From positions 17,610,001 through 17,674,000 of the forward strand of contig CM059432.1 of the NCBI GenBank assembly GCA_030390025.1: a DNA stretch of 64,000 nt, read 5' to 3'. The stretch is from Squalus acanthias (Eukaryota). Every line of letters starts with the position of its first letter. Position 1 is the stretch's first letter. Below, piece after piece: positions 4,795-57,789 of the stretch. The notes below the pieces were generated by a model. It saw only the letters and a list, made by a program, of their open reading frames with translations. It was not told the DNA's origin and did no database searches. Both the position numbers and the translations under genes were made by a program.

Positions 4795-5821
4795 GGCCCC
4801 GATTTTAACTCCCCCTGCCTAGCAGAAACCAGGCAGTTAAAATGTTGCGAGAGATTTACCCCCTCCGATCCCATTGCCTTCTCGACGGGACTGAATATTA
4901 ACCTCTCTTGAGCAGGACACCTGCTGAAGGCAACGGAATCCAGTTTAAATATGCAGCTCAGGTCCCAGTGACGTCATCAGGACTTGATCTGCTATTTTAA
5001 TCCGAAGCCTGAGCAGGGAAGCGGTGCGGGATTCCCTTTCAGGCCAAACCTGTCTGGAGGGAGATGTTGCTCTGGGCTTCACAAGGAAGCCTTGGACCTC
5101 CCTTAACATGGGCTTTCCCCTCCCCTCACGATCGCCTTCGCTCCCCGATCCCTTTCACCCCAGACCACTTGACTGACTGCCGTGGACCGATCCCGTGGGT
5201 CCCTGACTGTGGCCTCCTTCTCCGATTGTCTGCTCACTCCCGCCAGCTGCCCAGGCGGCAGCCGCGGCTCAGTGGGCCTGCACTCTCGCCTCTGAGTCAC
5301 AAGGTCGTGGGTTCAAGTCCCACTCCAGAGACTTGAGCACAAACAGCTAGGCTGACACTCCAGTGCAGTACCGAGGGAGTGCCGCACTGTCTTCTGGATG
5401 AGATGTCTGCTCTCTCAGGTGGACGTAAAAGATCCTATGGCACTATTTCGAAGAAGAGCAGGGGAGTTTTCACTGATGTCCTGACCAATATTTATTCCTC
5501 AATCAACATCACTAAAACAGGTCATTATCACATTGCTATTTGTGGGAGCTTGCTGTGCCCAAATTGGCTGCCGTGTTTCCTATATTACAACAATGACTAC
5601 ACTTCAAAAGTACTTCATTGGCTGTAAAGTGCTTTGGGATGTCCTGAGGTCGTGAAAGGTGCTATATAAATGTAAGTCTTTTTTCTTTTAATGTATCTGG
5701 CCCGGTTCAGGTGGGACTCCGATGAAAGTTACGATCGGCTGGGCCTCCGTGTCCCTGGACGCACCGTCTGCTTTGGGGCACGCGCACACCGTACCCGCTC
5801 CCCCCCTTTAAAATCAGGGCC
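4795..5821. mobile_element. Harbinger-type MITE interrupted by a SINE
   Basis: TIRs GGCCCCGATTTTAA / TTAAAATCAGGGCC, flanked by AAT/AAG (imperfect 3-bp TSD). Confidence 0.65.
5260..5690 (+). mobile_element. tRNA-derived Deu-domain SINE (SacSINE1/AmnSINE-like)
   Basis: A box GGCTCAGTGG, B box GGTTCAAGTCC, Deu-like core GGTGGACGTAAAAGATCC...AAATTGGCTGCC and tail GCTATATAAATGTAAG. Confidence 0.8.
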
Positions 5822-6027: not shown

Positions 6028-6446
6028 AAAGTTTCACTTGTCACAACTGACCATTTTTTCTTGACTGCCTCATCTTCCTCGCTTTTCTCTCTAACTTTAG
6101 TGGTGTTCTGCAGAATGGATCTTAACCTTCCACAGTTTCTCAGTTAAAAGCTGTGATCTGAAACTCCTCATGTGGGCTGTGTGAAAAGCATGTGGAACCA
6201 CTTCACCAGAGCAATATGTTGGATCAGCAGTGGCAATAAGGTTGTCCACCGGGCAATTCTGATTATTGCAATACAGTTTTTTCAGTATTTATGAGTCTTT
6301 TATGATTCTGAGCTTTCACTTGAAGGCTAATGATTAGTTTCCTTATTTCATAGACAGTAAAAGAGAAAATTTACATCGCCTGGTATAATGATCTAAAATG
6401 AGAAGTCGCACAACACCAGGTTATAGTCCAACAGATTTATTTAATT

Positions 6447-6485
6447 TTACAAGCTTTCGGAGCAGTTCGCTCCTTCGTCAGGTAA
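6447..6485 (-). ncRNA. Minimal type I hammerhead ribozyme, family A
   Basis: Minus strand: ttac CTGACGA a GGAGC gaact GCTCC GAAA GCTT gtaa. Confidence 0.8.
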
Positions 6486-6809
6486 GTTTAGCAGTGAGAG
6501 AATCTCCCAGAATTCACAATTTAAACACAGACAAAATATATTCTCTGCTTTCTTGCATCTCTGCAGGTACTTGATGTCTGTGTCAATATGCGCGATCTTC
6601 TTGGCGATTCTCTCCACTTTGAGCCGGCAGTTTGCGGTGTCAATAGAGGTCATGATGTGGAGATGCCGGCGTTGGACTGGGGTGGACAAAAATGAGAAGT
6701 CGCACAACACCAGGTTATAGTCCAACAGATTTATTTAATTTTACAAGCTTTCGGAGCATTTTGTCTGTGTTTAAATTGTGAATTCTGGGAGATTCTCTCA
6801 CTGCTAAAC

Positions 6810-6848
6810 TTACCTGACGAAGGAGCGAACTGCTCCGAAAGCTTGTAA
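6810..6848 (+). ncRNA. Minimal type I hammerhead ribozyme, family A
   Basis: Stem I TTAC/GTAA, core CTGACGA, stem II GGAGC/GCTCC, GAAA, palindromic AGCT stem III. Predicted cleavage after 6844. Confidence 0.8.
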
Positions 6849-6994
6849 AATTAAATAAATCTGTTGGACTATAACCTGGTGTTGTGCGACTTCTCATTTT
6901 TGTCCACCCCAGTCCAACACCGGCATCTCCATATAATGATCTAGTTTTTGTTCACCTCAGACGTTCTCGAATTTTTTTTTGTTATATGGATCTT

Positions 6995-23587: not shown

Positions 23588-24473
23588 GGTCAGTGGTGAG
23601 GTGATTAAACAAGTGAAGTTCAGAATATTAATGGGTGTTTCCAAAAGCTATGCCTTAGCCATCCATCCCACATCTTGATAATGAATGATAATAACCCCCC
23701 CCAGTCTATAATATATTAAATTGGTTATGTATGTTGCACACTCCTTACTGGAGTTGGTTATTCCGGTCTGTAGGACTTGCAGTCTAACATTTCTTGCCTT
23801 AAGCAAAAGCAAAAATCTCAACTCAATTGAATTACCTCAAACAGTCACACCAGAGGAAATTTGTCTCGTTAACCTTGAATGAGAGACACATTTATAGCCA
23901 CATATTTGGATGATTTGCTGGAAATATTGACAAGAGGAAGCAAATTATAATTTTTTATGGAAGGAATGAATTGAAGAGTCAGAAGGTAACTAAAATATTT
24001 TTTTAAAAGCACCTCAAAAGAGAAAAGATGGGTTAATATTTTGGCTAGAGACCCTTCATTAGAAATCCTAGCATTTTCTATTTTTATTTCATATTTCCAA
24101 TATTTGCAGTTTTTACATTTTCATCTCAGAAGATGCACATCAGTGAAGTAAGTAATAGGTCATGATGACTAACGGTATTGTGACTCATCCAATGCATGAA
24201 CATCTTTAATTACACTTCAATGCTTGACTAAACCAGTCTACATCCCTGATTGACTGCTGCACCTGCAGCATAAAAGTGGACCTGTAACATGGCTGACTTT
24301 CAGATGCCAGAACTTTGTGCTTTGAGGTTTTGGAACACATTTTGCAGGTCTGTTGAGCTTGTAAGTGTTTAAGCTGAGATCCATATGCACTGTGACCTCC
24401 TTGGAAAACCCTCTCCCCACATTGACTGGGCGCTTATAACATCTATTCCTCAACTGAGATATATACCAGTGGA

Positions 24474-25695
24474 ATGGGAACCATTTATACCCTCTCATCC
24501 TGGTCCTCAGAATCGGAGGAAGAGCAGCCGCGGCAGCAGCAAAACCAGGCACAACAGCAGCAGCAACAACAGGAGCGCCAACCTTCTCCTCAGCCACCTG
24601 ATGATGCACAGGGCAGAGGGCGTCAGCGCAGGGCTGCACCGCGCCGCAGGAGATACCCCCAACACAGGGTTTACAGGTCGAGGATGAGCTTCCTCAACAT
24701 GAGTGAGCAGCAATGCCAAAGGAGGCTCAGACTTTCGCGAGAGGTAGTCGCTGACATCTGCACAATGCTGCACCAACACCTAGAGCCCAGAGGAGCGGGT
24801 GGACACTCCTTACCAGTGGCTGTCAAAGTCACCACCGCACTCAACTTCTTTGCTTCAGGGTCCTTCCAGGGATCAGCAGCAGACATCAGCAGCATCTCCA
24901 ACACTTGCATCATGCAGGTCCACTGATGCCCTCTTTGCAAAGTCGCTCAATTACATCCACTTCTCCACGGATGAAGCAAGTGTAACCGTGCATGCGGTTG
25001 GCTTTGCAAATATGACAGGCTTCCCAAGGGTGCAGGGCGTCGTAGACTGCACACATGTGGCCATTAGGGCACTCCATCACAACCCAGCTGTATTTGTGAA
25101 CCGCAAGAGCTTCCACTCACTTAACGTCCAGCTGGTGTGTAACCACAGGAAGAACATTATGCATGTTTGCGCTAAGTTCCCTGGCAGTTGCCATGACTGG
25201 TTCATCCTGCGGCAGTCTACTGTGCCTCAGCTGTTCAATCCGCCAACCCAACTCTCTGGATGTCTACTTGGAGACAAGGGCTATCCCCTGAAGACGTGGC
25301 GAATGACACCGATGAGGAGGCCATCAAACGAAGCTGAGGAGCGTGACAATGTGAGCCACATTTCCACCAGAAGCATCATAGAGCAAACCATCGGCTTGCT
25401 CAAAATGCGATTCAGATGCCTTGACAGATCTGGTGGAGCCCTACAGTGCTCACCAGCCAGGGTCTCCAGAATCATCGTGGTCTGCTGTGCCCTGCACAAC
25501 ATCGCACAGCAGCGTGGCTTAGCGCTGCCTGAGGAACAAGTGGCTCAGCGCACAGCCTCCTCCTCCTCAGAGGAGGAGGAGGAGGAAGCAGATGAGGAAG
25601 ACCTTGCGGAGGCGGATGTGCCAGTTCCACCAGCATGTGAGCACATTGCTGGCCTTGAGGCAAGCGATGCACTAATCCATGCCAGATTCGCGTAA
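24474..25695 (+). pseudogene. Harbinger (HARBI1-like) DDE transposase, one frameshift near 24900
   Basis: ORFs 24474-24926 and 24799-25695 carry [36 protein letters not shown] and CCALHN. Confidence 0.92.
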
Positions 25696-27819
25696 GTTTA
25701 CGCAGCAAACACATGTGGCTGGCACATGGAAATGAGTGTCTGGCCGACCATCTTAACACACCATACAGCATCTGTACAATAAGCTGTGGTTTTCTATCAC
25801 TCTCACCACCATCATTACAGATGAAAGGCGCCTTGACCCCTCACTGTGCAACTTCCATTTCTGAGCACACATAGGCCAACTCTTTGAACCTTTGCCATCA
25901 CATTTCTTTATTACAATTGAAATAACGATGAGAAACATAACTTTGTATTAGATCAAAACACCCAAGTGACTACCCTTGTGACTATTTGTGTGTTCACTTT
26001 CTCTTACACGTGCTTCTATGTGGTGCTTCCCCTGTGGCTTCAGTAAATGTTGAGGCACCTTGCTCACTTCCATGCTGCGCCTGCTTCGACGCCTTTGGCG
26101 GGCGTCCTCTGGGTTTGGGAGCCTGCGAGAGCTCGGCAACAGTCTGCTTCTCCTGTGGCTGTGCAGGGGCTGAGGCGGTCATCTCAGTTGGGTGAGGAAT
26201 CTGGGCTCTGACCGAGGGCTCCGCGGTGGCATGGGAGTGTGAGCGCTTGGAGAGGAGCCCACACTTCCTTGTTGTTGACCACCAACATCCCTCTCATGGG
26301 TCACCCGCACTTCACTGCTAGCAAGTGGCTGGAGAGCACCTTGCTGCTCATCAGTGGGGCCATGTAGACCCATCTCTGTACTGACAGCCCTCATAACGGG
26401 GACGTCCATGTACCTCTGGTGTCTCTCCTTAATAGATACCCATCTATCCTCCATAGCAGACCATCTATTCAGAAGTGTTACCATGTTCTCCTGAGTCTGG
26501 CGATTTATGTCCTCCATGGAGGTTGCCATCCTTTCCATGGCGTGTGCACCATGGCATTGCTTATGTTTGAGATGGACTCCTCCATTCTCTGCACACTCGC
26601 AGTTACAGTAGTTGCAAACTCTATCAGAGACTCCTGCACTTGTTCCTGAAGTTCCTGAAGTTCCAACACCGCTCTCTTTCTGGATGGCCCCAGAGGCACA
26701 GGGTCCACATGCAGCTGATCAGAGCTAGGAGCGTCCAGCGCCCGCCGATGAGGATTCTCCTGTGCTGTCCTTGTCTCCACCATCTACTGCTGCTCACTTG
26801 TGAGCTGTGATACACCAGGTGACAACACTACTCTATCTCGCGAATGACCCACCGAGGTGTGCGTCTCTGCGCTGGTGCTGGGTGCGCTCAATTCTGCTGA
26901 CACTGCTCCCTCAGAGATTGCAGCTTCCTCTGAGGAGTCTTCCAGCTCTTCCTCCTGGACAGTGGTGAGGGGGGCTCTCGGTGGTCCTGTGGGGGAGTAA
27001 AGGCATGAGTTAGACATGTGATATTAACGTAGCAGACACATCCATTGTGCAGATGATCAGAACTCAATCTGTATGAGCATCAGATGCCATATCAGTCAGT
27101 CATGAAATCTAAATGAGAGGGTTGCAAATCTATTCTGTCACCAGCTTGCTCTACTGTGCCCATCTCTCTGTCCCCCACTTCCAGCTCCTCAGCACCTCCG
27201 ACGATGTCGATAGCAGCCTCCTCAGCAGTGGTTAAGTGCGCCATGGAAGGTGGGTTCTCTTTTCCTACAATGAGGGACACAAGTGGAGGTTGAGCGAGAA
27301 TGTTGGAGTGAGTGTAGAGATTCCATAGCATAGATACTTAGAGGGAGACAAAGATGGAGTGAGGTGCCAATACCAAGGGCCCTCCCTGTGCATTGTCAGT
27401 TGTTGCCATTGCATTGCAGTGATAGCGAGTGTGATGGGTGCATAGTAGAATGGTGCTGTGAGTCTGTACATAGAGAGAGAGGGATGGTTAAGGGTGCAAG
27501 GGATGTAAGGGTAAGTTGGGATGTACAGGAGTAGGTTGACAATGCAGAGTGCTGGTGATGAGAAGAGATGGGGAGCAGATTGAAGGTAAGTATGACATTA
27601 TACTCACTTTTGCTGAACGTAGCAGATCATTGAACCTTTTCCTGCACTGAACCCAGGTGCGTGAGCACAAAGACCTGGCGCTAACATCCTTAGCAATTTG
27701 CAGACAGGCTGCCTTGGTTTGCTGAGGAGACTTCCTCCATCCATTGGAGGGGAACAGAACCTCCTTGCGCCCTCTCACTCCCTCCAAAAGAGCATGGATG
27801 GGTGTCATCATTGAATCTT

Positions 27820-29482
27820 ACATACGAACATACGAATTAGGAGCAGGAGTAGGCCACTCGGCCCCTCGAGCCTGCTCCGCCATTCAATAAGATCATGGCT
27901 GATCTGATTACTCCGCATTCCCACCTACCCCCGATAACCTTTCACCCCCTTGCTTATCAAGAATCTATCTACCTCTGCCTTAAAAATATTCAAAGACTCT
28001 GCTTCCACTGCCGTCTGAGGAAGAGAGTTCCAAAGACTCACGACCCTCTGTGAGAAAAATTTCTCCTCATCTCCATCTTAAATGGGCGACCCCTTATTTT
28101 TAAACAGTGACCCCTAGTTTGAAGGGATAATTACTAGTCCTAGCCCCTTTAGGGCTACCCCGGATCAGGCGTATTCCTCAGACGTTCACTTTCAACTAAA
28201 GTTTGAGGTAGCCGAATCCTAAAGATGCTTAATCGGGTCTAAAGGTCCAGCCTATCTCTCCCTAAAGGAAAGGAACAACCTGAAGATGTTACCGTCCTCC
28301 AGATAGCACTTTTAATAAGTTTAGCTAGACTGTAATGTTCCGGATATTATGAGGGTCCGGAAAACTCCCCCAAAATTCTGCAACTCCTCACCAAAGAGCG
28401 TACAGAGATTGAGTCCGCGAGTTTGATACAGAAGTATTATGTGAGACAATTCTAAAAATATATAGATTTATATAAAAACCGACATGTAATTTACAGTTGG
28501 TGATTCAATCGCAACATTAACAGTTCCAAATACAAAAAGCTTACAATTCTATTATCAGAGATCCTTATTCTCAAATCTTAACTTCGTTACATTTTTACAG
28601 TTCTTAGTCTTTATTCCAGGATATCCACCAAAATCAAATACAGTACAATACCTTGATCCCCGAGGTACAAAAAGTTGTAGACTTACAGAGCTTGCCTCTG
28701 AAGCCGAGAATCGCTTTGCCCCTTTACAGCGAGACTATCATCCCATTTGAAAGTTCAATATTTATATCCTTTTTCAGTGGTATGTCCTTCGAAGTTTTCT
28801 GCTGATGTAAGTTAATTATCTCTAGTCATTTTTCTGCTGACCCCTGCTATTCTTACAGTCAGTTCAGCTGGTAGCATTAAGAATCGTGTCTCTACCTTTA
28901 GGTGTTCGAAGCTTATCATAAAAACGGTGTGACAGCAGATGCATCTATTTGATGTCATTCTTACCAAGGTCTTCTGTTTGTGTCTTTTTACGACGTGTAA
29001 TTTAAAAACATCTCAACAGGGTGCACCATTGTCTTCTTAGTTACCTCAGCTGGTTGCAACACAGAATCATGTCTCCTGTGTTTCATTTGATGTCATTTTT
29101 ACGAAGGCATATGTTTCTTAATTTTCTGTGTTTCTTTCCAAAGTGTAATATAGGACACCTAAACAGGGTGTACCATTGTGTTCTTTCCAAGGCTTCAGAC
29201 TATCAGGAACATCCAACCTCCTGTTTCAATAAGGTAATTGATTCAGTGTCAACAACTTATCTTATCTCAATAGCCTGTTTGCTGTTTACAGCTTCTCCAT
29301 TGTTAGGTTTTTAGATTTTCAAACCCAGTTTGTCATGTTACAATAAGGCTAGAATTATTTCATAGAATGGTGTATTTTTCTGAATGTGGCTTATTCCTTC
29401 ACAAGTTCTAGATCCTCCCACAAGAGGAAACATCCTCTCCACATCCACCCTGTCAAGACCCCTCAGGATCTTAGACCCCCAA
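27820..29482 (-). mobile_element. CR1 3' fragment (27820-28119 plus 29404-29482) inserted in the Myb exon
   Basis: 7-bp TSD GAATCTT at 27813-27819 and 29483-29489. The CR1 sequence rejoins across the LTR. Confidence 0.85.
28120..29403 (-). mobile_element. Solo LTR, 1284 bp
   Basis: TG...CA termini with imperfect inverted ends, TSD AGTT (28116-28119, 29404-29407). Minus strand has TATAAA at 28761-28766 and AATAAA at 28610-28615. Confidence 0.85.
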
Positions 29483-31059
29483 GAATCTTGGGGAAGCCTT
29501 GGCTCTTGAAGCAGTCATCTCGCTATCAGTAACACCGATAAGCAGCAGAATGTGAATGAAACACCACAAGGCTGCATGGGCCCCTTAAATGCAGCTGATT
29601 CAAAGACGTCAGCAGAGGCGAGCAGCAGACCCGAACCCACTGATTGGGCCGGATAACGCGCACGGCGGGCTTAATAAGTCCATGTTAAGGCAAAATAGTT
29701 ATTGCAGTGCGGCTGAAACCGGCAGCGGGACCGGAACTCAGCGACCAGCCAACCCGCCGCCTATGGCAAAATCGCGGCCTTTAAATCAACATAAAATTAA
29801 ACAGACTCAGAAAATAGCTCCTTAGTTTCTGTTTTACTTCATTTGAGCAGTGTTATATTTAAATGTTAACATTAGTTTTTGTTCGGTGTCATAAATATTA
29901 CTATTTCAGTTGGAAAGCAGTATCCTGAAAACGTCTTTCTTTTTGAACTCACTAGGTTTTTTTAAAAACATACGTGTGTCAAAGCTGCACTATATTAAAA
30001 TGAAACAAAAACAATATGTTCCATCCAGGTTCATAAATAACCTTTTATCAAAACCTTCATAGCAAAGTTCGAGAAAATGTTTAAAATACAGACATATTAC
30101 AAAGACACAGCTTTGTAATTGATGTGTTTATGATTAAGCGGTGGTTTGATATCAACATTTCAATACAAGTCTATAAATGACTGCAGGTCTTTTAATCAGA
30201 TAGCAAATATGTTTTAACCACAGATTCAAATAGTTTTAAGCATGCCCGCCAGAGACAGTGTTACTTTTCGACTTGAGGGTCATCTATGACATAAGACGTT
30301 GCTCAGCCTTTTATGGTTTTAGGATACGAACTTCCAATTCTTTGATAATGACGCTTGATATGATTCAGAAAATTGGATACGTTCAACAAAGGCATGCAAC
30401 AGAGACTTTTGTTAAAATTGAGCGTTTCTTGTTTCCTATTCACTCTGTGACGATCTGAAGGTCGTGCATCTGAGATGGTGCTTTTAATCTTTCTGCATTG
30501 GTATCGCTAATTTCCTACCGCATCTCCCAATTTCATCTGTGACATCCCTCAGCCCCCTCTGTGAATTACTCACGCCTCCTCTGTGACCTCCTCAAGTCTC
30601 CTCATTCTACCCATGTCTTGTGCAAGGCACGTTTTTGCTGGACTCTCCTTCACAAACCTCTAGAGATCCTTCCACAGCGTTTTTGATCTTTTTTACTATA
30701 ATCTTATTAGATGCGCCCTGAAGCAATACGGATTCTTTTTTCTTTAGTATATCTTCTGTGAGATCAACTGGCTGAATGCCTGTAACTAGGATTCCCTTCA
30801 CCTTCTGCATAGTTGCATTTTGAACAAAAGGAAGAAGTACTTGGTGAGTCTGCTATGAATACAGGACATAATTTGCTCCTGTTTTTGTTTTCGTATTTGC
30901 TTTTTTATTTTTCCAGTACAAGTATATGTGCAACCCACAAACATCAGCCCCAAATGTCTATTACATAATTATTTCCATTAAGTAATACTTCCTTTCTATA
31001 AGAGGAACTTGCCATTTACATTGTTATATATAAAATGGCTGTGATTTGGAGAATTATAG

Positions 31060-38939: not shown

Positions 38940-39175
38940 TTGGCCTCGGTTTTAAAATTCACATCCTTGTTTTCAAATCCCTCCACAGCCTCTTTATCTC
39001 TGTAACCTCCTCCAGCCCAACAATTCTCCGAGTTCTCTGCACTCCTCCAATTCTGGCCTCTTGTGCATCCCCGAATTTCATCACTCCACCATTGGCGGCC
39101 GTGCCTTCAGCTGCCTACGTCCTAAGCCCTGGAACTCTCTCCCTAAACCTCTCCGCCTCACAACACCTCTCTCCA
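38940..39175 (+). mobile_element. L2-type LINE 3' fragment, degraded
   Basis: FKIHILVFKSLH...TIGGRAFSC...PWNSLPK. Confidence 0.65.
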
Positions 39176-39532
39176 ATAGTTCCAAAAATACTTTTAATGG
39201 TTACAGAAATGTTTTTTCTGCATGTGTGTTTGTGTAATCAATAAATAAAGAATCCACATTCTGTGCACTGGTTTATAGAAAAAAAACTACTAAATAGCTC
39301 ATAAGCATCACAAATCATTTTCCGCTTACCACCCATCACTGACATATATCCTCTTTATAATAGTTAAAATAGCTAAAAATGCTCTCTGTTATTATATGAT
39401 AGACACTGGGCTTATTGGTTGTCTAGAATTTGGTGATTGGGTATTGGCAACGCATCACAATAAATATAGAAGTTCTGGTATCGCTCGGGGGGAATCATAA
39501 ACCATGGCTATAAACCACAGATCTGGAGGCTG

Positions 39533-40296
39533 TGGCCCTGAAATTCGCCTCTCCGGCTTGCCGCGGGTGCAAGGATCGCGCGCGCACTTACCTACCGCGC
39601 CTGCCGTTGACCTCTGGGCCCACGGGGACTTCAACTCCTGGGCCTGCTCCAAGTGCCGGCGCGCAGTGCTTGCGTGTCCCAGGGGCGTAGTTAGTGCGAT
39701 GCGTCCCCTGGGATCACGTGGGCCATGGAGAGCCAATGGCAGCAGACCATCTTTCATTCATAGATTTGACAGGAGACCTGTCAAATCTGTGAATTGAAAT
39801 CGGCCCCAAAAGAACAGCTAAACTTAAAATAAATTTTAAAAAAAACATCACATTTATAAAATAACTATAAGTTAAATAAATTAACTACATTAAACAAAAA
39901 TTTAAATTTTTGAAAAAATTTAAAATACTTTTTAACAGTGCTAAAAATAAACTTACTTTCTTTAAAGTATCTAAAAAAGATAAACCTGTTGAAATTTTTT
40001 AAAATTATAATTAATTAGCCACTTACCTTGTTGAAAACGGGTCTTGCGCCTCCTTTTTAAAAGTGCAGGTTCTTCAATACTTACCCTCCCGGAGAAACCT
40101 GAAAAAAAACCTAAGTTTGCTGCGTGCGCGCAGCCTCTCCCGCGCATGCAGTTCACCTCTGAACCGCTCCCTTCATGAGACCAGAAGTTCCGGTTTCCCG
40201 CGCATGCGCAGTGCATGCAGGAAACCGGCACTGCAGGAGGCCTTACGGGTGAGTACACAGTGCGTACTCACCCGGCAAGTGCCGAAGTTTTGGCCC
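39533..40296. mobile_element. Structured ~760-bp MITE, copy 1
   Basis: TIR GGCCCTGAAATTCG / CGAAGTTTTGGCCC. GC-rich arms with an AT-rich centre; highly similar to 48290-49050. Confidence 0.85.
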
Positions 40297-40643
40297 AGTA
40301 TGTATTGGATAAGAAAGGTGTGTCGGGGTGGGGTGGGGGAAATGAGGGGGCAATGCCAGTTTAATCATGTATCTCATCTGGAGATGCTAATGCTCTGATC
40401 TCATGATACCACAACATTTGCCTTTATATTTTGTTCATCCTGTATAATAAATGAGAAAAAGTCAAGGGCAATCTGATTTATCCTTCAGTATTCCAACTCA
40501 CCCAGTCAAAATGTATTTTGAACTTTCTTAAGATTTTTGACTATCTTACTTGATAGATTATTCAAACAGTTTCTCGTCCTCTCAGTAAAATATGTTTTTT
40601 CAATATTACATTAAATTTCCTTTCACTCATTTGATTTAAATTG

Positions 40644-42985
40644 TGAAATAACAACAGAAAATGCTGGAAATGCTCAGCAGGTCAGGCACCATCCGTGGCG
40701 AGAGAAACAGAGTTAACGTTTCAGGTCGAGGACCCTTCGTCAGAACTGGAAAAAGTTAGAGATGTAACAGTTTTTAAGCAAGTGCAGGGGCAGGGAAAGG
40801 GAGGAGGGGAGGAAAGAACAAAAGGGAAGGTCTGTGATGGGATGGAAGGTAGGAGAGATTAAAAGACAAAAAGGATGATGGTGCAGGGCAAAAGGAGATG
40901 GTAATGGGACAAGTTAATAAACAAAAGATGAGTCTAGATGAGGTGTAAATGGCAATGGCAGAATCATCAACAGCTGCCATGTGAGGAAAAAATATAGTTG
41001 GAACAGTGTAAGAGGCCATGGACAGAGAGATCAGAGTGGGAGTGTAGCGGAGAATTAAAGTGATAGACGACCGTAAGCTCGGGATCACGCTTACGGAATA
41101 AACGGAGGTGTTCCGCAAAGTGGTCACCCAATCTGCGTTTGGTCTCCCCAATGTAGAGGAGACTGCAGCTAATACAGTATACTAAATTGTAAGAAGTACA
41201 AGTAAATCGCTGTTTCACCTAGAAGGAGTGTTTGGGGCCCTGGACAGTGGGAAGGGAGGAGGTAAAAGGGCAGGTGTTGCATCACCTGTGCTTGCACGGG
41301 AAGGTGCTGTGGGAAGGGGAAGGGATGTTGGGGGTGATAGAGGAGTGGACCAGGGTGTCGCGGAGGGAGCGGTCCCTTTGGAATGCTGAAAGGGGGGTGG
41401 AGGGGAAGATATGTTTGGTGGTGGGATCACGCTGGAGGTGGCGGAAATGGTGGAGGATGATCCGTTGAATGTGGAGGCTGGTGGGTTGAAAGGTGAGGAC
41501 AAGGGGAACCCTATCGTGGTTCTGGGAAGGAGGGGAAGTGTTGAGAGCAGAAGTGCGGGAAATGGAATGGACACGGTCAAGGGCCGTGTCAACCACGGTA
41601 GAGGGGAATGCTCAGTTGAGGAAAAAGGAAGACATATCGGAAGCACTAGTATGGAAGGTGGCATCGTCAGAACAGATGTGGCCGAAATGGAGAAACTGGG
41701 TGAATGGAATAGAGTCCTTACAGGAAGTGGGGTGGGAGGAAGTGTAGTCCAGGTAGCTGTGGGAGTCAGTGGGCTTATAGTGGATGTTGGTCAATAGACT
41801 GTCCCCATAAATGGAGATAGAGAAGTCGAGGAAGGGAAGGGAAGAGTCGGAGATGGACCATGTGAAGGTGAGTGAAGGGTGGAAATTGGAAGCAAAGTGA
41901 ATGAAATTTTCTATTTCAGGCCGAGAGCAGGAAACGGCACCAATACAATCATCAATGTACCGGAAAAAGAGGTGAGGGAGGGGACCTGAGTAGGACTGGA
42001 ACAAAGATTGTTCCACATATTCCACGAAAAGGCAGGCATAGCTAGGGCCCATGCGGGTTCCCATAGCAACACCGTTAATTTAGAGGAAGTGAGTGGAGTC
42101 AAAGGAGAAGTTGTTCAATTTGAGAACAAGTTCAGCCAGGCGGAGGAGGGTAGTGGTGGATAGGGACTGGTTGGACCTCTGTTCAAGGAAGAAGCGGAGC
42201 GCCCTCAGGCCATCCTGGTGGGGGATGGAGGTGTAGAGGGAGTGGACGTCCATAGTAAAGAGGCGGCGGTTGGGGCCAGGAAACTGGAAACTGTTAAAGT
42301 GGCGGTGGGCGTCGAAAGAGTCACAAATGTAGATGGGAAGAGTCTAGACAAGGGGAGAAAAAATAGAGTCGAGATAGGAAGTTCTGTGGAGCAAGAACAG
42401 GATTAACAATGGGTCTACCAGGGCAGTCCTGTTTGTGGATCTTGGGAATGAGGTAGAAGTGGGTTGTGTGGGGCAGGGACAGGGAGGAGGGGAGGAAAGA
42501 ACAAAGGGAAGGTCTGTGATAGGCTGGAAGGCAGGAGAGATTAAAAGACAAAAGGGATGATGGTGCGAGGCAAAAGGAGATGGTAATGGGACAAGTTAAG
42601 AAATAAAAGATGACTCTAGATGAAGTGTAAATGGCGATGGCAGAATGATCGACAGCTGCCATGTGAGAGAGAAAAAAGGGAAAAAAATATAGGGGCCGAG
42701 GTTATGATCTGAAATTGTTGAACTCTCTGTTGAGTCCAGAAGGCTGTAAAGTGCCTCATCGAAAGATGAGGTGTTGTTCCTCGAGCTTACGTTGTACTTC
42801 GTTGAAACAGTGTAAGAGGCCTAGGACGGAAAGATCAGAGTGGGAGTGGAGCAGAGAATTAAAGTGACAGGCGACCGGAAGCTCGGGGTCACGCTTACGG
42901 ACTGAACAGAGATGTCCGCAAAGTGGTCACCCAATCTGCGTTTGGTCTCCCCAATGTAGAGGAGACCGCATCCTGAGCAGTGAAT
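40644..42985 (-). mobile_element. Penelope-like element family B, minus arm (RT, GIY-YIG, pseudo-LTR; partial tandem)
   Basis: MGTRMGPSYACLF, FFRYIDD, YKPTDSHSYL, FTCTSYNLVYCISC...YIGETKRRL. A second GIY-YIG/3' segment lies at ~42450-42985. Confidence 0.9.
40711..40747 (-). ncRNA. Minimal type I hammerhead ribozyme, family B
   Basis: Minus strand: agtt CTGACGA a GGGTC ctc GACCT GAAA CGTT aact. Confidence 0.75.
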
Positions 42986-43941
42986 GGCAGCCAACCTCAT
43001 AGTCCCCCAATCCCGCACAGCCCGCTTCTACCTCCTTCCCAAGATCCACAAACAGGACTGCTCTTGTAGACCCATCGTTTCAGCCTGTTCTTGCCCCACG
43101 GAACTGATTTCTTCCTATCTCAACTCTATTTTTTCTCACCCTTGTCCAATCTCTTCCCAACTACATTTGCAACTTTTTCGACGCCCTCTGCCACTTTAAC
43201 AGTTTCCTGGCCCCAACCGTCTCCTCTTCACTATGGACGTCCAATCCCTCTACACCTCCATCCCCCACCAGGATGGCCTGAGGGCGCTCTGCTTCTTCCT
43301 TGAACAGAGGCCCAACCAGTCCCCATCCATCACCACCCTCCTCCGCCTGGCTGAACTTGTTCTCACATTGAACAACTTCTCCTTTGACTCCACTCACTTC
43401 CTCCAAATTTCATTCACTTTGCTTCCAATTTCCACCCCTCCCTTAGCTTCACATGGTCCATCTCCGACACTTCCCTTCCCTTCCTCGACTTCTCTGTCTC
43501 CATTTCTGAGAATAGGCTATCGACCAACATCCACTATAAGCCCACTGACTCCCACAGCTTCCTGGACTACAGTTCCTCCCACCCCGCTTCCTGTAAGGAC
43601 TCTATTCCATTCTCCCAGTTTCTCTATCTCGGCCGCATCTGTTCTAACGATGCCACCTTCCATACTAGTGCTTCCGATATGTCTTTTTACCTCAACCGAG
43701 GATTCCCCTCTACCATGGTTGACATGGCCCTCGACCGTGTCAGTTCCATTTCCCGCACTCTTGCTCTCACCTCTTCCCCCCCCTCCCAGAACCACGATAG
43801 GGTTTCCCTTGTCCTCACCTTTCAACCCACCAGCCTCCACATTCAACGGATCATCCTGCGTCATTTCCACCACCTCCAGCGTGATCCCACCACCAAACAT
43901 ATCTTCCCCTCCACCCCTTTCAGCATTCCGAAGGGACCGCT

Positions 43942-44387
43942 CAACAACAATAACTTGTATTTATATAGCGCCTTTAACGTAGTAAAATGTCCCAAGGCGC
44001 AGCACAGGAGTATTTTAAGACAAAAAATTTGACACTGAGCTACATAAGGATAAATTCGGGCAGGTGACCAAAAGCTTGGCAAAGAGGTAGGTTTTAAGGA
44101 GCATCTTAAAGGAGGAAAGAGAGGTAGTGAGGCGGAGAGGTTTAGGCAGGGAATTCCAGTGTTTATGGCCTAGGCAACAGAAGGCACGGCCACCAAAGAT
44201 TGAGCGATTATAATCAGGGATGCTCAAGAGGGCAGAATTAGAGGAGCGCAGATATCTCGGGGGGGGGGGGGGGGGGGGGTGGGGTGGGGTTGCGGGCTGA
44301 AGGAGATTACAGAGATAGGAAGGGGCGAGGCCATGGAGGGAATTGAAAACAAGGATGAGAATTTTGAAATCGAGGCGCTGCTTAACC
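43942..44387 (-). mobile_element. L2-type LINE 3' fragment inserted in the PLE
   Basis: Close reverse complement of 23165-23587. Confidence 0.85.
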
Positions 44388-45100
44388 TCGACACCCTGGT
44401 CCACTCCTCTATCACCCCCAACATCCCTTCCCCTTCCCACGACACCTTCCCGTGCAAGCGCAGGAGATGCAACACCTGCCCTTTTACCTCCTCGTTTCCC
44501 ACTGTCCAGGGCCCCAAACACTCCTTTCAGGTGAAGCAGCGATTTACTTGTACTTCTTACAATTTAATATTCACTATTCGCTGCTCACGATTCGGCCTCC
44601 TCTACATTGGGGAGACCAAACGCAGATTGGGTGACCGCTTTGCGGAACACCTCCGTTCAGTCCGCAAGCATGACCCCGAGCTTCCGGTCGCCTGTCACTT
44701 TAATTCTCCACTCTGTCCATGGCCTCTTACACTGGTCCAACGAAGCTCAAGGAACAGCATCTCATCTTTCGATTAGGCACTTTACAGCCTTCTGAACACA
44801 ACATCGAGTTCAACAATTTCAGACTATAACCTCTGCCCCTTTATTTTTTTTCCGTTTTTTCTCTCACATGGCAGCTGTTGGTGAATCTGCCATCGCCATT
44901 TACACCTCCTCTAGAGTCATCTTTTGTTTCCTAACTTGTCCCATTACCATCTCCTTTTGCCTTGCACCATCATCCCTTTTGTCTTTTAATCTCTCCTGCC
45001 TTCCAGCCTATCACAGACCTTCCCTTTGTTCTTTCTTCCCCTCCTCCCTTTCCCTGCCCCTACTCTTGCTTAAAAATCTGTTGCTTCTCTAACCTTTTCC

Positions 45101-45137
45101 AGTTCTGACGAAGGGTCATCGACCCGAAACGTTAACT
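45101..45137 (+). ncRNA. Minimal type I hammerhead ribozyme, family B
   Basis: Stem I AGTT/AACT, CTGACGA, stem II GGGTC/GACCC, GAAA, palindromic ACGT stem III. Confidence 0.8.
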
Positions 45138-45229
45138 CTGTTTCTCTCTCCACAGATGCTGCCTGACCTGCTGAGTGTTTCCAGCATGTTCTGTTGTTAT
45201 TTCAGATTTCCAGCTGGCCTCTTGTTTCA

Positions 45230-46950
45230 CTGGGCTGACTCACCTTGAAGTGATATTCTAGGTCCCCATAACAAAACAATTTTATTGCTTTGTCATTTGT
45301 CTGGGGGATTCCACTGGTCTCCCACGGAAGGGAATTTCGGAGCATGGGAGGCCCAAGGTTTCCTTTTGGGGCTTGGAATGAGCATTCATGCTCCTCCTGG
45401 CCTACAAGGAAACAAAATTTAAAAAACTTACCTTACTGGGCCTGGTTCCTGTTCGTGGCATTCCACCACTGCATCACCGCTCAATCCTCAGGTTAAACTC
45501 ACAGATGGAGCCCCGGAGTCCAATCTGCATATTTAAAGAGGAAACCCGGTGGCTTTGGGTGGGTGTTCTTGCTACCTGCAATTCAAAATTGCAGTTGGTC
45601 AGGTCAGAGCAAGAAAGTAGTGGGTTAAATCTTCTGCTCCATTTTAACTGACTGCCACCCCCCACCCCTCCCCCAGCCTGGTTTCACCGGGAGTTAAAAT
45701 TGAGGCCAATTCATTGTCACTTTGCTTTTCCAGCTTAACTTCTTACAGTGGGCTGGATTTTCTTGGGGAAGGTGGGTTGTGGGGGGGTTGGCGGCTCCGT
45801 TGCGGGCGGGAAACCCGGGAGGCCGAGTTTCTCGCAGGCCCTGCCGACTTTAACGGCAGGGCCTGATTTGCACCTGAAGCCTCTGTTTCCCGCCCGCAGC
45901 CAGCCAGATGGAGAGGCTGGATGGCTCCGGGCGGGTAGGCCTGCGACACTAGGCCCGCACAGAGGAGGGATGGAGGGAGGGATACGGTGAGGGCTGGGGC
46001 CGACCTCCGGAAGATTGGGGAGTGGGGGGGGGGGGAGGGGGGGGAAGTAGTTGGAAGATCGCGGCCTCCGGTGGATTGGGGGAGGGGGAGAAGTAAGTTC
46101 GGGGCCGGCCACCAGAGGATCGTGGCCGGCCTCAGGATCATCGGTGGGGTGGGGGTGGGGGTCCGGGAAGGGTTAGGTAGGGACCCTGGATCCAGGAGGT
46201 AAGTGTAAAGGCACTTAACTCCTGGATGCAGCAGTCCTCACCTTGCTGTAACTGCCGGGTTTTACGAGGTGTGTAAAACCCGACCAGCTATGGTTAAAAA
46301 CAAAATGGAGGTTAAAGAAGTGGCTTCCAGCCTCACTAAAATATTTAAGTTGACATCCCGCCTCCTGGGTTGGCTGCCCGCTGTCATATCCCGCCTCCGT
46401 TAACGCAGGAAGTGGGCAGGCTGGAGGCGGGCTCTGGTCAGGATTCTGATTTTTAACAATTTCACTTTACCCCCATGCTCCAAACCCACCCTTGTTTTAG
46501 GTTGGGTGAGCGGGTGGGAGTGGGTGCAGGCGGGGAGTTAAATGGGCAAAAATGGCGAGCGCGTCGGGAAGCCGGCTCCAACCCGCCGACTTCTGGTTTT
46601 AACAGAGGCGAGACGAGGGCCCGGCAGCAAGCCCGCTCCCAGGAGACGGGTTGGCACTTTAAATATGCTAATGAGGCGGGAAGCCGCGGATTTAACCCGC
46701 TTTGTCGGTTTGTCCTGTGGCCGGCTGGGGTTCCCGGGCCTCAGGAAAACCCGGCAGCTGCAGCGAGGCGAGAACCGCCTCGGGGAGCAATCTTTGTGGG
46801 CCGGGAGGAGCAGGAGTGCGTCCCCCGGCTCCACCACCAACCCCCACAAGCTCTCCCACCATCAGAACCCCCCTCATACAAACCCATCGGGCCGGGGATC
46901 GGACCCCACTTCGGGATGGGACCCCACCTCCGGGGAAAATTGAGTGGGGA
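45230..46950. mobile_element. Cluster of GC-rich Harbinger-type MITE fragments
   Basis: Termini such as GTTAAAATTGAGGCC (~45707) and GGGCTGGATTTTC (~45750); shared TTTAAATATGC(T/A)AAT-type cores. Individual boundaries are uncertain. Confidence 0.5.
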
Positions 46951-48289
46951 AATGTATCTGTATAAAATGCACGCAACTCCTCATCATTCAAAACATCTTT
47001 TTTTTTAATTCTTCATGAAAATAGCATTGAGTCAAAGGTAATTAATTCACACTACAATCCAGGACACAACGTCCACAGTACAACACCACCCCGATGCTCG
47101 TTAGTCCTTTTTACCAATTACCAACTTCTAGCGATATTACTAACACATTAATGGCAGCATAGTTCAAACAAAACCGTTTCTAATACTGCAGCAGGTTTAC
47201 ATTGGCACAGCACGGGTTAAGCTTTTAATCTTCCTTCTTTCCCCAAAGTCGGCAAGGAGCTAAGACATGGCGGTAATGACTGAATAATTCCAAAAAAGTT
47301 TCCTCCCACTTTTTTAAAATATCAAAAAATTTGGAATTCTTTGTGCAAATTAAATTGGCTGCTTCAGAATTAAAAGTAGAACAAACAAATTAAAAATACA
47401 ATTTAAAATTCTAACCAATTTAATCAATTAGATTTTCGGCAAAATAACTCGTGGTCTGTTTCCTTAAATGATCGTGCGGCGCTGTTTTCAAGCTACAATC
47501 ACTGCAGAGAACACTGATCATTCACCAGTCCTGCAACAAGAAGTTGACCATTTTCTTGAAAAGTAATATTGCATATTACTTTAATATTTGTATGAACAGC
47601 TCTCGCATTAATGAAAAATTTAATTTCTAGAGCAATCATCTGATATGGTTGTCATTTAAGGACTGGACAGTCTGGTTTTTGAGAAGATTGGGGAGGGGGG
47701 TGAAACTAATTTGGCAAGGGGAGGGACACCTGGATGAAGCATTAGAGAGGAGAAACAAGGGGCCCAAAGGACTGGGAGAGACGAACAACATTAGAATAAA
47801 GAGTGGTTCAGAAACAAGAGGGATCAGACATGGGGGAAAATGTGAGGCAGACCAGCATGGGTTTGGAGCGCATGTGCGTAAATGCACAGAGCGGGGTAAA
47901 TAAGGTTGGTGAGCTGCAGGCACAAGTCGCCACATGGAACTATGATATAGTGGCAATAACGGAGACCTGGCTCAAAAAAGGGGAGGAATGGGCACTTAAT
48001 ATTCCTGGCTACAGGGTATTCAGGAAATACAGGGAAGGAAAAAAAAAGAGTGGGGCGGAGCAGTATTGATCAAAGAGAGCACTAGAACGGGATGATGGAC
48101 TTGAGGGTTCAAAGACAGATTCTCTTTGGTGAAGAATTAAGAAACAATAGAGGAGCTATTACACTGCTGGGTTTATACTGTAGGCCACCAAATAGTGGGA
48201 AGGAGCTAGAAGAGCAAATTTGCAAGCATAGTACAGAAAGATGCAAGAACTTTGGAGTAGCGATAATGGGGGACTTCAATTATCCTAAT

Positions 48290-49050
48290 GGCCCTGAAAT
48301 TCGCCTCTGCGGCTTGCCGCGGGGATAAGGATCGCGCGCGCACTTACCTACTGCGCCTGCCGTTGACCTCTGGGCCCACGGGAACTTCAGCTCCTGGGCC
48401 TGCTCCAAGTGCCGGCACGCAGTGCTTGCGTGTCCCAGGGGCGTAGTTAGTGCGATGCATCCCCTGGGATCACGTGGGCCATGGAGAGCCAATGGCAGCA
48501 GACCATCTTTCATTCATAGATTTGACAGGAGACCTGTCAAATCTATGAATTGAAATCAGCCCCAAAAGAACAGCTAAACTTAAAATAAATTTTAAAAAAC
48601 CATCACATTTATAAAATAACTAGAAGTTAAATAAATTAATTACTTTAAACAAAAATTAAAATTTTTGAAAAAATTAAAAAACTTTTTAACAGTGCTAAAA
48701 ATAAACTTACCTTTCTTTAAAGTATCTAAAAAAGATAAACCTGTTGAAATTTTTTTAAATTATAATTAATTAACCACTTACCTTGTTGAAAACGGGTCCT
48801 GCGCCTCCTTTTTAAAAGCGCAGGTTCTTCAATACTTACCCTCCCGTAGAAACCTGAAAAAAACCTTAAGTTTGCTGCGTGCGCGCAGCCTCTACCGCGC
48901 ACGCGGTTCACCTAAGAACTGCCCCCTTCACCAGACCGGAAGTTCCGGTTTCCCGCGCATGCGCAGTGCATGCAGGAAACCGGCACTTCAGGACGCCTTA
49001 CGGGTGAGTACACAGTGCGTACTCACCCGGCAAGTGCCGAATTTCTGGGC
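48290..49050. mobile_element. Structured ~760-bp MITE, copy 2
   Basis: TIR GGCCCTGAAATTCG / CGAATTTCTGGGCC with 3-bp TSD AAT inside the CR1 reading frame. Confidence 0.9.
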
Positions 49051-49624
49051 CAATATAGATTGGGAAAATAACAGTGTAAAGGGCAAAGAGTGGGAGGAAC
49101 TCCTGAAATGTGTACAAGGTAACTTTCTTGATCAGTATGTTTCCAGCCCAACGAAGAAGGAAGCAGTGCTGGATCTAGTTCTGGGGAATGAAGTGGGGCA
49201 AGTGGAGCGTGATTCACGGGGGAGCATTTGGGAAGCAGTAAACACATTGGCCCAGAAATTAAACATGGATGGTTCCCGCGGGGGTAAGGATTCCCCGCGA
49301 TATCGCACTCTGCGCCTACCTTTTTGTTTGGGGCCCACACGAACTTTAGTTTCAGAGCCTCTTCTTATTGCAACCGCGCAGTGTGTGCGTATCCCAGAGG
49401 CGCAATTAGTTCGTGCGCGCTCTGGGATCACGTGATTCAGTTAGAGCCAATGGCAGCACACCATCTTTCATTCATAGTTTTGACGGCAAGAGCTGTCAAA
49501 GCTATGAATACTACAAACCCCCAAAAGAACAGCTAAACCTCAATTAAATTAAAAAAAAGCCATCACATTAATAAAATAAGAAGTCGCACAACACCAGGTT
49601 ATAGTCCAACAGATTTATTTAATT

Positions 49625-49663
49625 TTACAAGCTTTCGAAGCAGTTCGCTCCTTCGTCAGGTAA
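49625..49663 (-). ncRNA. Minimal type I hammerhead ribozyme, family A
   Basis: As 6447-6485, but stem II is GGAGC/GCTTC (one G.U pair). Confidence 0.75.
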
Positions 49664-49943
49664 GTTAGCAATGAGAGAATCTCCCAGAATTCACAATTTA
49701 AACCCAGACAAAATCTATTCACATTATTCCCTACAACAAAGAGCACAGCCAAGACAATGAGATGTGTCCCAGGCTAACAAGAACACAAATTGACAGGATA
49801 TGCAGCCAGCAGGTGGTTTGACACGTTGGACCCCCTGGGACACATCTCATTGTCTTGGCTGTGCTCTTTGTTGTAGGGAATAATGTGAATAGATTTTGTC
49901 TGGGTTTAAATTGTGAATTCTGGGAGATTCTCTCATTGCTAAC

Positions 49944-49982
49944 TTACCTGACGAAGGAGCGAACTGCTTCGAAAGCTTGTAA
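49944..49982 (+). ncRNA. Minimal type I hammerhead ribozyme, family A
   Basis: ttac CTGACGA a GGAGC gaact GCTTC GAAA GCTT gtaa. Confidence 0.75.
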
Positions 49983-50517
49983 AATTAAATAAATCTGTTG
50001 GACTATAACCTGGTGTTGTGCGACTTCTCATTTTTGTCCACCCCAGTCCAACGCCGGCATCTCCACATCATGACCTCTATTAATAAAATAAGTATAGTTA
50101 AATAAATTAACCACTTTAAACAAAAAATTAAATTTTTGAAAAAATTTTAAATCTTTTTAAAAGTTATAAAAATAAACTTACCTTTCTTTAAAGTCTCTAA
50201 AAAAGATAAACCTGTTGAAAAAAATTTAAAATAACACTTAATTAACTACTTACCTTGTTAAAAGGGGGTCCTATGCCTGCTTTCTTTATGTGTAAAATCT
50301 TCACCACTTACCTGCGCGTTCAAAGCTGAAAAAAAAACTAAGTGCACTGCGTGCGCACAACCTGTAGCGCGCATGCGGTTCACTTAGGAACCGCCCCCTT
50401 TGCAATTCACGAAGTGCCGGTTTCCCGCGCATGCAGGAAACCGGCAATTCGGGATCTAATACGCGAGAGTACACAGTGCGTACTCTCGCGTATTAGGTTT
50501 AATTTTCGGGCCATTAT

Positions 50518-50966
50518 CATAGAAACATAGAAACTAGGAGCAGGAGTAGGCCATTCGGCCCGTCGAGCCTGCTCCACCATTCAATACGATCATGGCTGAT
50601 CATCCAAATCCAGTACCCTGTCCCTGCTTTCCCACACAGAATCCCCATCGAGCCTGCACCGACACATATCCCACCCTATCCCCGTAACCCCACGTATTTA
50701 ATTCCCCCTAACATATCCCATCCTATCCCCGTAACCCCACATATTTTATCCCCCCCTAACACTAAGGGTCAATTTATCATAGCCAAATCAACCTAACCCG
50801 CACATTTTTGGACTGTGGGAGGAAACCGGAGCACCCGGAGGAAACCCACGCAGACACGGGGAGAATGTGCAAACTCCACACAGACAGTCACCCGAGGCCG
50901 GATTCGATCCCGGGTCCCTGGCGCTGTGAGGCACCAGTGCTAACCACTATGCCACTGTGCCGCCCC
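50518..50966 (-). mobile_element. HE1-like V-SINE fused to a CR1 3' tail
   Basis: Minus strand: tRNA head GGCACAGTGGCATAGTGG...GGATCGAATCC, V-domain TGTGTGGAGTTTGCACATTCTCCCCGTGTCTGCGTGGGTTTCC, internal ~47-bp tandem duplication, CR1 tail. Confidence 0.85.
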
Positions 50967-51879
50967 ATTAAGTTTAGAGCAGTTATGGAAAAGGACAAGG
51001 AACAATAAAATGTGAAAATACTCAACTGGAGGAGAGTCAACTACATTGAGTTGAAAAGGGATCTGGCCCAGGTGGATTGGAATCAACGTTTGGCAGGTAA
51101 AACAGTAAATGAGCAATGGGAGGCCTTCAAAGAGATAGTTTGGGTATAGACTAGACACATTCCCACAAGGGGAGAACGGAAGGGCATCCAAAGCTAGAGC
51201 TCCCTGGATGACTAAGAAGTGTACGATAAATGTCAGGTTCATAATTCAGTAGAGAACCATGCTAAATACAAAAGGTACAGGGGAGAACTGAAAAAGGCAA
51301 TAAGAGGGGCAAAGAGAGTGTATGAGAATAAATTAGCAGATAACATAAAGGGGAACCCAAAAGTCTTTTATAAACATATAAATAGTAAAAGGGTAGTCAA
51401 AGGAAGGGTGGGGTCGATTAGGGACCAAAAAGGGACAATAGCCTAGATCCTTCCCACTGTTGGTAACCAGAATCAATGTTAATGCCACTGCCAATACTAA
51501 TGATTTTTAACTTGTCAAAAGTGATATAAAGATGCTACTGCCAAAACTCCTGGTTTATCCCTTTGCCTAGAGCTAGTTTCAGGAGCTATTGGTATGGTGC
51601 AGACCCTGTCTTCAGGGTACCCACTGTTCACTATGATAACAGATAAATCCTGATATCAATAAATAATTATCAAGTCTCACACTGTTCCTGATTCAGCAAG
51701 TCCTGGTATACCATATTCCTTTGCACTATATAAAACTGTCCGTAAGCAAGGTGCTTCCCTGTCCAGATTGTGCATATCTAACATGATATTTAAAATTCCA
51801 ACAAATTATGTTGATGACTGAAGACATTTTACTTTTCCCCCCAGAGGAATGGAAATGCCATTGAAATGATTGGAAATAG

Positions 51880-56085: not shown

Positions 56086-56255
56086 GGGGTAGAAATTCAC
56101 TTTGCGGGGTCACGCAAAATAGGCGATATCGAATCGGCCACCCATTATTCTCCCCGACTGATATTCAGTTCCATTGACTTCAATTGAGCTGACTATCAAG
56201 CGGGGGCGTATAACAGGTGTCTGATGCAATACTGCCTAAGACCAATTTCTGCCCC
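56086..56255. mobile_element. Short palindromic MITE
   Basis: GGGGTAGAAATT / AATTTCTGCCCC. Confidence 0.6.
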
Positions 56256-56670
56256 AAGTCTTGTATGCTTTTATGTTCCACATATCGAATGGGAATGAGC
56301 TTACCCTGAAATCTCTCTCAGATCAGTTTCTGTTGACAAAGATCGAGGTGAAACCCAACAGAAAGAGAAGCTACAGCATCCAAACATTTAGTGTGCATGG
56401 AGTAGCTATGCAGAATGCAATGTTGGTTTGCGGTTGCCCTCTGTGCCAACCCCCGTGCTCGCTATCAATGGCATGTGCCTGCTTCAAAGCTGTTTCATTC
56501 TGATGTCTTTCTTCGGCCTTGTAGAGTAGCCCTTCAATTGCTAATTATTTTTCCAAGTGTCGGCCCAATTTCAAACCTAATCTAACATAACCTGTGCCAT
56601 CCTCTATCCCCTTAAAATTGATACATGACTAACATTGGTATTTCCAGACAAAAGCAAACTGCTAAAGCAC

Positions 56671-57054: not shown

Positions 57055-57239
57055 GGGGGTGAAATTTGACTTGGGTGGGACACAAAACGGGCGGTATCGC
57101 ATCTGTCGCCCATTATACGCCCCGCTCGATATTAAGTTCTATTGAAGTCACTGGAACTAAATATTGGACGGGACGTGTAACAGGCGCCAGATGCGATACC
57201 GCTCGTTTTGCGTTCCCGCCCATGTCAAATTTCACCCCT
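57055..57239. mobile_element. Fold-back MITE inserted in a decayed PLE pseudo-LTR pair
   Basis: GGGGTGAAATTTGAC...GTCAAATTTCACCCC, symmetric throughout, TSD ATT. Confidence 0.8.
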
Positions 57240-57789
57240 ATTATACCTGAAATGTGAACTTTTCTCTCTTTTTCAGATGTTGATTGAGCTGCTGTGTATT
57301 TCCAACACTTTCTGATTTTATTTCAGATTTGTGCGGGGGGGATGGGGGGGAGGATTTTAACCGAACCCATCAGGATGAAGCGGACTAGTGTGCGCTTTTT
57401 CAGGAGGGAGTGATGACAGGAGCGAACAATGTCTGAGGAAAGGCAACAGTTGAAGTTATCAGTGAGAATTGGGCCGACGACAGGCAGTTGAGTGGTTAAG
57501 AGCTGGGTTAGGGGTTGGGGGTTGAGAGGGCAAAGTTGAAGGCATCAACCTCCTAGTTGTAGAAGGTGATGAGTCAGATTAGGGCAGGATGGAATACCGT
57601 GGAGAAGTTCCAGAGTGTTGTGGGGTCAGGGCTAAGGTGAGGACAGGGTTGGTGCAGACAACTGATTTAGGAGAGTTAATAGGGTAGGTGGAGGCTGAGA
57701 TAGTTGAATGGATAATCTCAATTTTGGAGATGACAGAAAGCAAATTAACTCTGTGCACTGGACATCAGAGGTGTGAATGGAAGGAAGGG

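Follow-up and report, generated by a model that had tools for sequence, protein, structure and literature searches.

Internal symmetry maintained in the stems of a PIF/Harbinger-like miniature transposable element from Squalus acanthias

The window analysed here, a stretch of 64,000 nucleotides from Squalus acanthias (GCA_030390025.1, contig CM059432.1, positions 17,610,001 to 17,674,000 of the forward strand), is rich in repeats, among them reverse-transcriptase fragments (RVT_1), and contains three copies of a non-autonomous MITE (miniature inverted-repeat transposable element) of about 762 bp (Table 1). The element belongs to the PHIS superfamily (PIF/Harbinger-like), since it is short, non-coding and repeated and combines terminal inverted repeats (TIRs) with a 3-bp target-site duplication (TSD). 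The TIRs of 14-16 nt are located at the extreme ends, and the duplication follows the pattern ANT: AAT/AAT at copy 2 and ATT/ATT at copy 3. The flanks of copy 1, TGT (39531-39533) and AGT (40297-40299), were interpreted as a 3-bp duplication in which one position differs. Copies 1 and 2 share 94.9% identity and form subfamily A; copy 3, with an identity to these of about 75-79%, represents subfamily B. A preliminary description of this DNA had proposed a MITE family seen in three copies, which was confirmed.

Copy 2 is inserted in the reading frame of a long interspersed nuclear element (LINE), with the residues GDFNYPN before the copy and IDWENN past the second AAT. Because this frame stays in phase on both sides, the 3-bp duplication at copy 2 is fixed. 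We take the frame to be a CR1 endonuclease; the long stop-free frame across copy 2 had no match in Pfam. The region 48180-51200 is a nested cluster, in which two MITE copies lie 198 nt apart within one old LINE frame together with further insertions. The foreign foldback insertion in copy 3 contains a 201-nt perfect inverted repeat and is 95-98% similar to a second one at 6394-6942; both are young and presumably Penelope-like. This insertion was excluded from every tally, and all tallies rest on three copies from two independent lineages.

Two other classes were considered and rejected. Helitrons and Helentrons lack a TSD and terminate in a 3' hairpin followed by a CTRR-type end, whereas the present element has a TSD and its ends are TIRs. 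CACTA-type ends were rejected as well, the termini being GGCC. At least half of the words of the element were present in 10 of the 20 sequencing runs listed, from four studies, a figure that refers to word content only. No RNA run was among those listed at this level; seven of the runs presumed to derive from RNA contained 38-44% of the words, which is evidence neither way. A 22-nt pattern of the element had no match in metagenome and viral contigs, and 118 metagenome loci retrieved with an 18-nt pattern were dropped as chance matches, given their little extension beyond the pattern and a best BLAST score of 41.9 bits for the element ends.

Table 1 Features of the MITE copies and of a neighbouring Harbinger-type remnant (positions within the window)
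Feature	Position	Strand	Remarks
MITE copy 1	39534-40296	+	subfamily A; right TIR decayed
MITE copy 2	48290-49051	+	subfamily A; 762 bp; TIRs 14/16 matching
MITE copy 3	49249-50512	+	subfamily B; TIRs 14/16 matching; includes 512-bp foreign insertion
Foreign foldback insertion in copy 3	49580-50091		13-bp duplication 49567-49579 / 50079-50091
Stem H5	48433-48469 (copy 2), 39677-39713 (copy 1), 49391-49428 (copy 3)		G-C to A-T double change in copy 3
Hairpin 1 (H1), copy 1	39756-39794		one U.G
Hairpin 1, copy 2	48512-48550		perfect 18 bp
Hairpin 1, copy 3	49470-49509		U.G, G.U and G-C to C-G swap; loop 4 nt rather than 3
Stem H4	48865-48916 (copy 2), 40110-40161 (copy 1), 50338-50387 (copy 3)		arms are variants of a self-complementary GCRYGC-rich word
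Hairpin 3 (H3)	48936-48992 (copy 2), 40184-40234 (copy 1), 50407-50454 (copy 3)		
Hairpin 2 (H2), subfamily A	49001-49029 (copy 2), 40246-40274 (copy 1)		11 bp
Hairpin 2, copy 3	50456-50496		17 bp; two double substitutions
ACTTACC words	48342, 48705, 48776, 48834 (copy 2); 50176, 50248, 50306 (copy 3); 39586, 40021, 40079 (copy 1)	-	5' splice-site-like
Broken Harbinger-type transposase of another family	24426-25695	+	DDE_Tnp_4, E 6e-35; frame broken near 24920
Myb/SANT-like exon of the same remnant	27602-27811	-	Myb_DNA-bind_5, E 2.5e-6

Five stems were recognized in the MITE, two of which (H4 and H5) come in addition to the three hairpins known from the preliminary description. In a strand-neutral scan for stems scoring at least 8, copies 1 and 2 had six and five stems, compared with means of 0.6 and 0.76 in 25 dinucleotide shuffles, none of which reached either count. 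The terminal halves had RNA folding z-scores of -3.4 to -11.3. On recheck the coordinates and pair states described for H1 to H3 were all correct, including the perfect, singly wobbled and doubly wobbled states of H1 and the lengthened H2 of copy 3 with its two double substitutions and invariant loop. One of the wobbles in H1 of copy 3 is itself a two-sided change (A-U to U.G), and the U.G of copy 1 is private to that copy. The H2 loop consists of the same 7 nt in all copies, and in the 6-bp outer extension of this hairpin in copy 3, 10 of 12 positions are unlike those of copy 2, as a block. H3, which had been described as kept, is indeed retained but carries mismatches other than G.U (copies 1 and 2 share T.C, copy 1 also has A.G, copy 3 has G.A, and C.A occurs in all) and an internal length difference of 11 nt between copies. 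The centre of H2 at 49011-49017 reads CACAGTG, which we take to be the heptamer of a recombination signal sequence; inspection by eye found no nonamer at a distance of 12 nt on either strand, and this identity was rejected.

For the analysis of paired changes, stems were defined on copy 2 and then read in copy 3, with a null distribution obtained by permutation. Over 63 stem pairs 15 sites had changed, and four pairs had changed on both sides while staying Watson-Crick, where permutation gave 0.29 on average (P 5e-5). When the two swaps in H2 were counted as a single event the probability was 0.0016, and when the innermost pair of H1, whose register beside the loop indel had been set by eye, was dropped in addition it was 0.028. 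Fully automatic versions with weaker stems yielded 4 of 100 (P 0.008) and 3 of 87 pairs (P 0.015), and an automatic version starting from copy 3 yielded 6 two-sided changes in 97 (P 4e-5). Within the GC-rich ends, stem sites had changed less often than others (19/136, 14%, versus 110/343, 32%; P 4e-5). Inside subfamily A there was no double change at all, stem conservation was not significant (3/130 versus 36/631, P 0.13), and the unstructured AT-rich middle of the element was as conserved as the stems (0.82-0.90). TIR positions 13-15 were altered in concert at both ends, with CGC/CGG in copy 2 and AAA/AAA in copy 3; in copy 2 the two sites are separated by about 730 nt. From the excess of double changes and the slower divergence of the stems it follows that the internal symmetry is maintained beyond independent substitution and that the stems are under some constraint. 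The covariation signal in the two lineages is real, not yet diagnostic and not specific for RNA.

The preliminary description had interpreted the hairpins as a selected RNA or single-stranded DNA structure, noting that every mismatch of H1 is G.U-compatible on the plus strand. This observation is true of H1 (3/3, two-sided P 0.25) and fails for the other stems. A hand count of distinct non-Watson-Crick states over all five stems gave six G.U, four A.C (P 0.75, at low power) and about ten others, so that the proposed comparison of G.U with A.C revealed no excess on one strand. States common to at least two copies, which were therefore probably inherited from active elements, comprised three G.U, three A.C and four that do not pair. 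On the minus strand the folds of the right halves are as good as on plus or marginally better (consensus folding energies of -70.8 for plus and -72.4 for minus), H2 and H3 do slightly better there, and with DNA parameters the left halves favour neither strand. Transversion swaps account for three of the four clean double changes; they cannot proceed via a G.U intermediate and weigh against an RNA reading. Rfam contained no family matching the element itself; the only match within 39000-51000, to mir-4861 with 33 bits (cut-off 100), lies inside the foreign insertion, and a microRNA was rejected on both grounds. Of the earlier interpretation, symmetry and constraint thus stand, whereas a plus-strand RNA or a strand-specific single-stranded DNA is unsupported by the 6:4 count and the slightly better minus-strand folds of H2 and H3. 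The alternative which that description had itself named as refuting, palindrome self-correction together with dimeric protein-binding sites, fits at least as well.

The clearest strand-specific signal in the element is the array of ACTTACC words on the minus strand, which we take to be a 5' splice-site consensus. The word occurs three to four times per copy compared with 0.06 expected, never on the opposite strand, and persists as islands amid divergent sequence, being kept between the subfamilies. Words of the stems recur outside them and in other elements: AAGTKCCG is found three times per subfamily A copy, GCRYGC has five to eight occurrences, and two other TIR-like elements contain five instances of the AAACC(C)G word of H3. 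Just upstream of H1 (48466-48495), the words CACGTG and AGCCAAT are conserved in all three copies. The sequence GGGATCACGT recurs upstream of the transposase region in a Harbinger remnant, at about 750.

In our best reading, to which we assign a probability of about 0.5, the stems are constrained DNA dyads that are kept symmetric through template-switch copying. For its mobility the MITE would depend in trans on a DDE transposase acting with a Myb/SANT partner, and its GC-rich subterminal regions are composed of short dyads, putative double-stranded DNA sites for the Myb/SANT protein of the element or for promoter factors of the host. Action of the dyads as such sites is the proposed cause of the slower divergence of the stems relative to the flanks. 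After mutation of one arm, template switching, either in replication or while synthesis repairs the gap at the donor site, may copy one arm onto the other, and would leave two-sided changes of any type and changes in blocks, with the loop intact and no strand preference. Counted in favour of this reading are the balance of G.U and A.C with about ten other mismatches, the transversion swaps, the block change in the H2 extension, the concerted change of the TIRs, the recurrence of stem words elsewhere and the abundance of hairpins in other TIR elements of the window. Both the binder of the dyads and template switching as the source of the double changes are inferred. Protein binding alone, without copy correction, was rejected as it does not predict two-sided swaps. 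According to the available parts of two studies, template switching yields compensatory substitutions without selection while keeping the loop, and a single event can produce multiple two-sided changes, an extended stem and a retained loop as in the MITE (PMC5453318, PMC8794818). The cases presented there come from human DNA, microRNA and rRNA genes rather than from a DNA transposon, the MITE is without loop inversion, and the part of template switching in keeping short stems is called less clear in one of them (PMC8794818).

Several observations weigh against dyads maintained by copying. None of the stems showed loop inversion, which would be the most telling trace of template switching, and repeated events would be needed, the double changes being distributed among three stems, or four with the outer H4 pair. 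The swaps in H2 of copy 3 destroyed the ACTYACC word, a loss that a binding site should not tolerate. As RNA, the left half of every copy favours the plus strand (z -5.5, -6.7 and -5.0 versus -3.5, -4.3 and -3.4), and on that strand G.U accounts for all three mismatches of H1 and for three in inner H4. The excess of transversions is weak, with P 0.05 against an assumed transition share of 75%, and is compatible with the 41% outside the stems. Finally, an excess of hairpins over the respective shuffles was seen in two of three control stretches outside repeats as well.

A bolder interpretation, which we regard as doubtful, is that base pairing itself is selected in several stems, be it in single-stranded or cruciform DNA at gap repair or in inward leader RNAs, and that folding rather than sequence is a requirement in cis for amplification; the similar terminal hairpin at 46256-46282 in a neighbouring element would in that case point to a structure that several families have in common. 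Its DNA version, in our view improbable, holds that strand-neutral hairpins or cruciforms, formed in single-stranded or supercoiled DNA at excision or gap repair, raise the copy rate, pairing counting for more than sequence or strand. The double changes in several unrelated stems, the conservation of stems relative to flanks, the equal folding of the left halves on both strands under DNA parameters and the retention of H2 pairing in copy 3 despite the lost motif are consistent with it. Copies 1 and 2, however, inherited mismatches that do not pair (T.C in H3; T.C, T.T and C.C in H4), the same pattern arises from template switching without selection, and we know of no single-stranded intermediate in cut-and-paste transposition.

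Selection on RNA structure has, in our estimation, a similarly low probability, and may concern either one plus-strand RNA or, more likely, leaders directed inwards from both ends as in a convergent two-gene parent, the plus strand carrying the left stems and the minus strand the right stems and the splice-site-like words. The plus-strand preference of the left half as RNA, the gain of one G.U pair and 0.5-3.4 kcal/mol by H2 and H3 on the minus strand and the conserved minus-strand words agree with such leaders, as does the fact that the double changes in H5 and in outer H4 are transitions. Against this, H4 leans to the plus strand although located in the right half, about half of the stem mismatches are neither G.U nor A.C, and an overall G.U bias and an Rfam family for the element are both absent; the clean doubles are mostly transversions, and a non-coding DNA transposon does not transpose through its RNA, which leaves the route of selection obscure. 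Very unlikely, lastly, is a neutral by-product of foldback errors in an ancestor, neither bound nor selected, with copy correction and the small sample explaining the rest: the two lineages, the two events of the strictest count (P 0.028), the lack of double changes and of significant stem conservation in subfamily A and the equally conserved middle would suit it, but copy correction alone should not lower the divergence of copy-2-defined stems to 14% beside flanks at 32%.

Neighbouring elements were inspected for comparable features. The two-gene Harbinger remnant listed in Table 1 extends over 24426-29780 and is split by later insertions; a second one, of another family, lies at about 483-2255, and both have the transposase on the plus and Myb/SANT on the minus strand. 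Their ends are loosely similar to those of the MITE, with no BLAST match. Of 13 other segments with TIR-like or Harbinger-type ends, whose bounds were set visually, stems were present in 11 and absent from two, and five exceeded all 25 shuffles; of nine control segments, one exceeded all shuffles, two more were reached by only one of 25 and four had no stem. The clearest hairpin-rich neighbour is the element at about 45751-46950, with seven stems compared with 1.24 expected and with long inverted arms (46231-46778, 64%). Its hairpin at 46256-46282 has 10 bp and a 7-nt loop, and its minus strand resembles H2 (CGGGT..TAC, loop ACA...C, GTA..ACCCG); MAFFT did not reproduce the hand alignment of the two, and the likeness is a resemblance only. 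In a second pair of foldback elements, six concerted columns (two of them in a badly aligned end) against two side-specific ones were too weak to count. The related 180-bp whole-foldback elements at 56086-56258 and 57055-57240, in opposite orientation and 74% identical, show a few changes that the two arms of one copy share. Further, a GGCCC-ended element at 4795-5821, flanked by AAT/AAG, is interrupted by an insertion resembling a short interspersed element, and 40640-45210 is a tangle of at least four retroelement fragments, 85-93% similar and alternating in orientation.

On the best reading this is an ordinary abundant MITE, and it cautions that covariation in transposon palindromes need not imply RNA structure. 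The family would provide a large natural sample in which to measure template-switch correction. If pairing itself were selected, the family would give direct access to the open question of how MITEs come to amplify beyond their autonomous parents.

With respect to known systems, the canonical PIF/Harbinger TSD, TWA (PMC4482050), was present in none of the three copies. The combination of TSD ANT and a TIR starting with AG or GG, which characterizes the Pangu group, was found exactly in two of three copies and with one mismatch in the third. Pangu elements share the ANT duplication and have TIRs of 11-40 bp starting with GG; unlike in the present case, no vertebrate is among the hosts listed, and their second open reading frame is without known motif (PMC4482050). 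By TSD and TIR start, Pangu is a candidate subgroup. The available part of the same source also sets CWG of NuwaI apart from TWA and from the ANT seen here (PMC4482050). Short TIRs starting with G, a 3-bp TSD and the lack of coding capacity are common to the MITE and the non-autonomous PIF/Harbinger elements Harbinger3N_DR and mPing, which serve as tested models, and a further likeness is that the genome also contains transposase and Myb/SANT genes belonging to relatives. As far as the accessible descriptions go, covarying internal stems are not reported for those two, in contrast to the present MITE. The transposition of mPing is tuned by internal sequences, for which the authors, in the portion available, prefer a nucleosome effect to specific sites (PMC9921582). 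Short non-autonomous Harbingers are confirmed in a vertebrate, according to the accessible part of another report (PMC8437027). A further counterpart is Harbinger-N12A_XT, a Harbinger MITE of the vertebrate Xenopus tropicalis that contains internal palindromic repeats and is enriched in factor sites, NRF included (PMC12676858); compared by description only, it differs in its length of 342 bp, and the accessible text is without covariation analysis. In titles and the openings of abstracts, no description was found of internal stems that covary in a Harbinger-type MITE of a vertebrate, repeat databases being outside this scope. The element is of a known kind, a Harbinger-type MITE with internal palindromes, to which covarying internal stems are added here.

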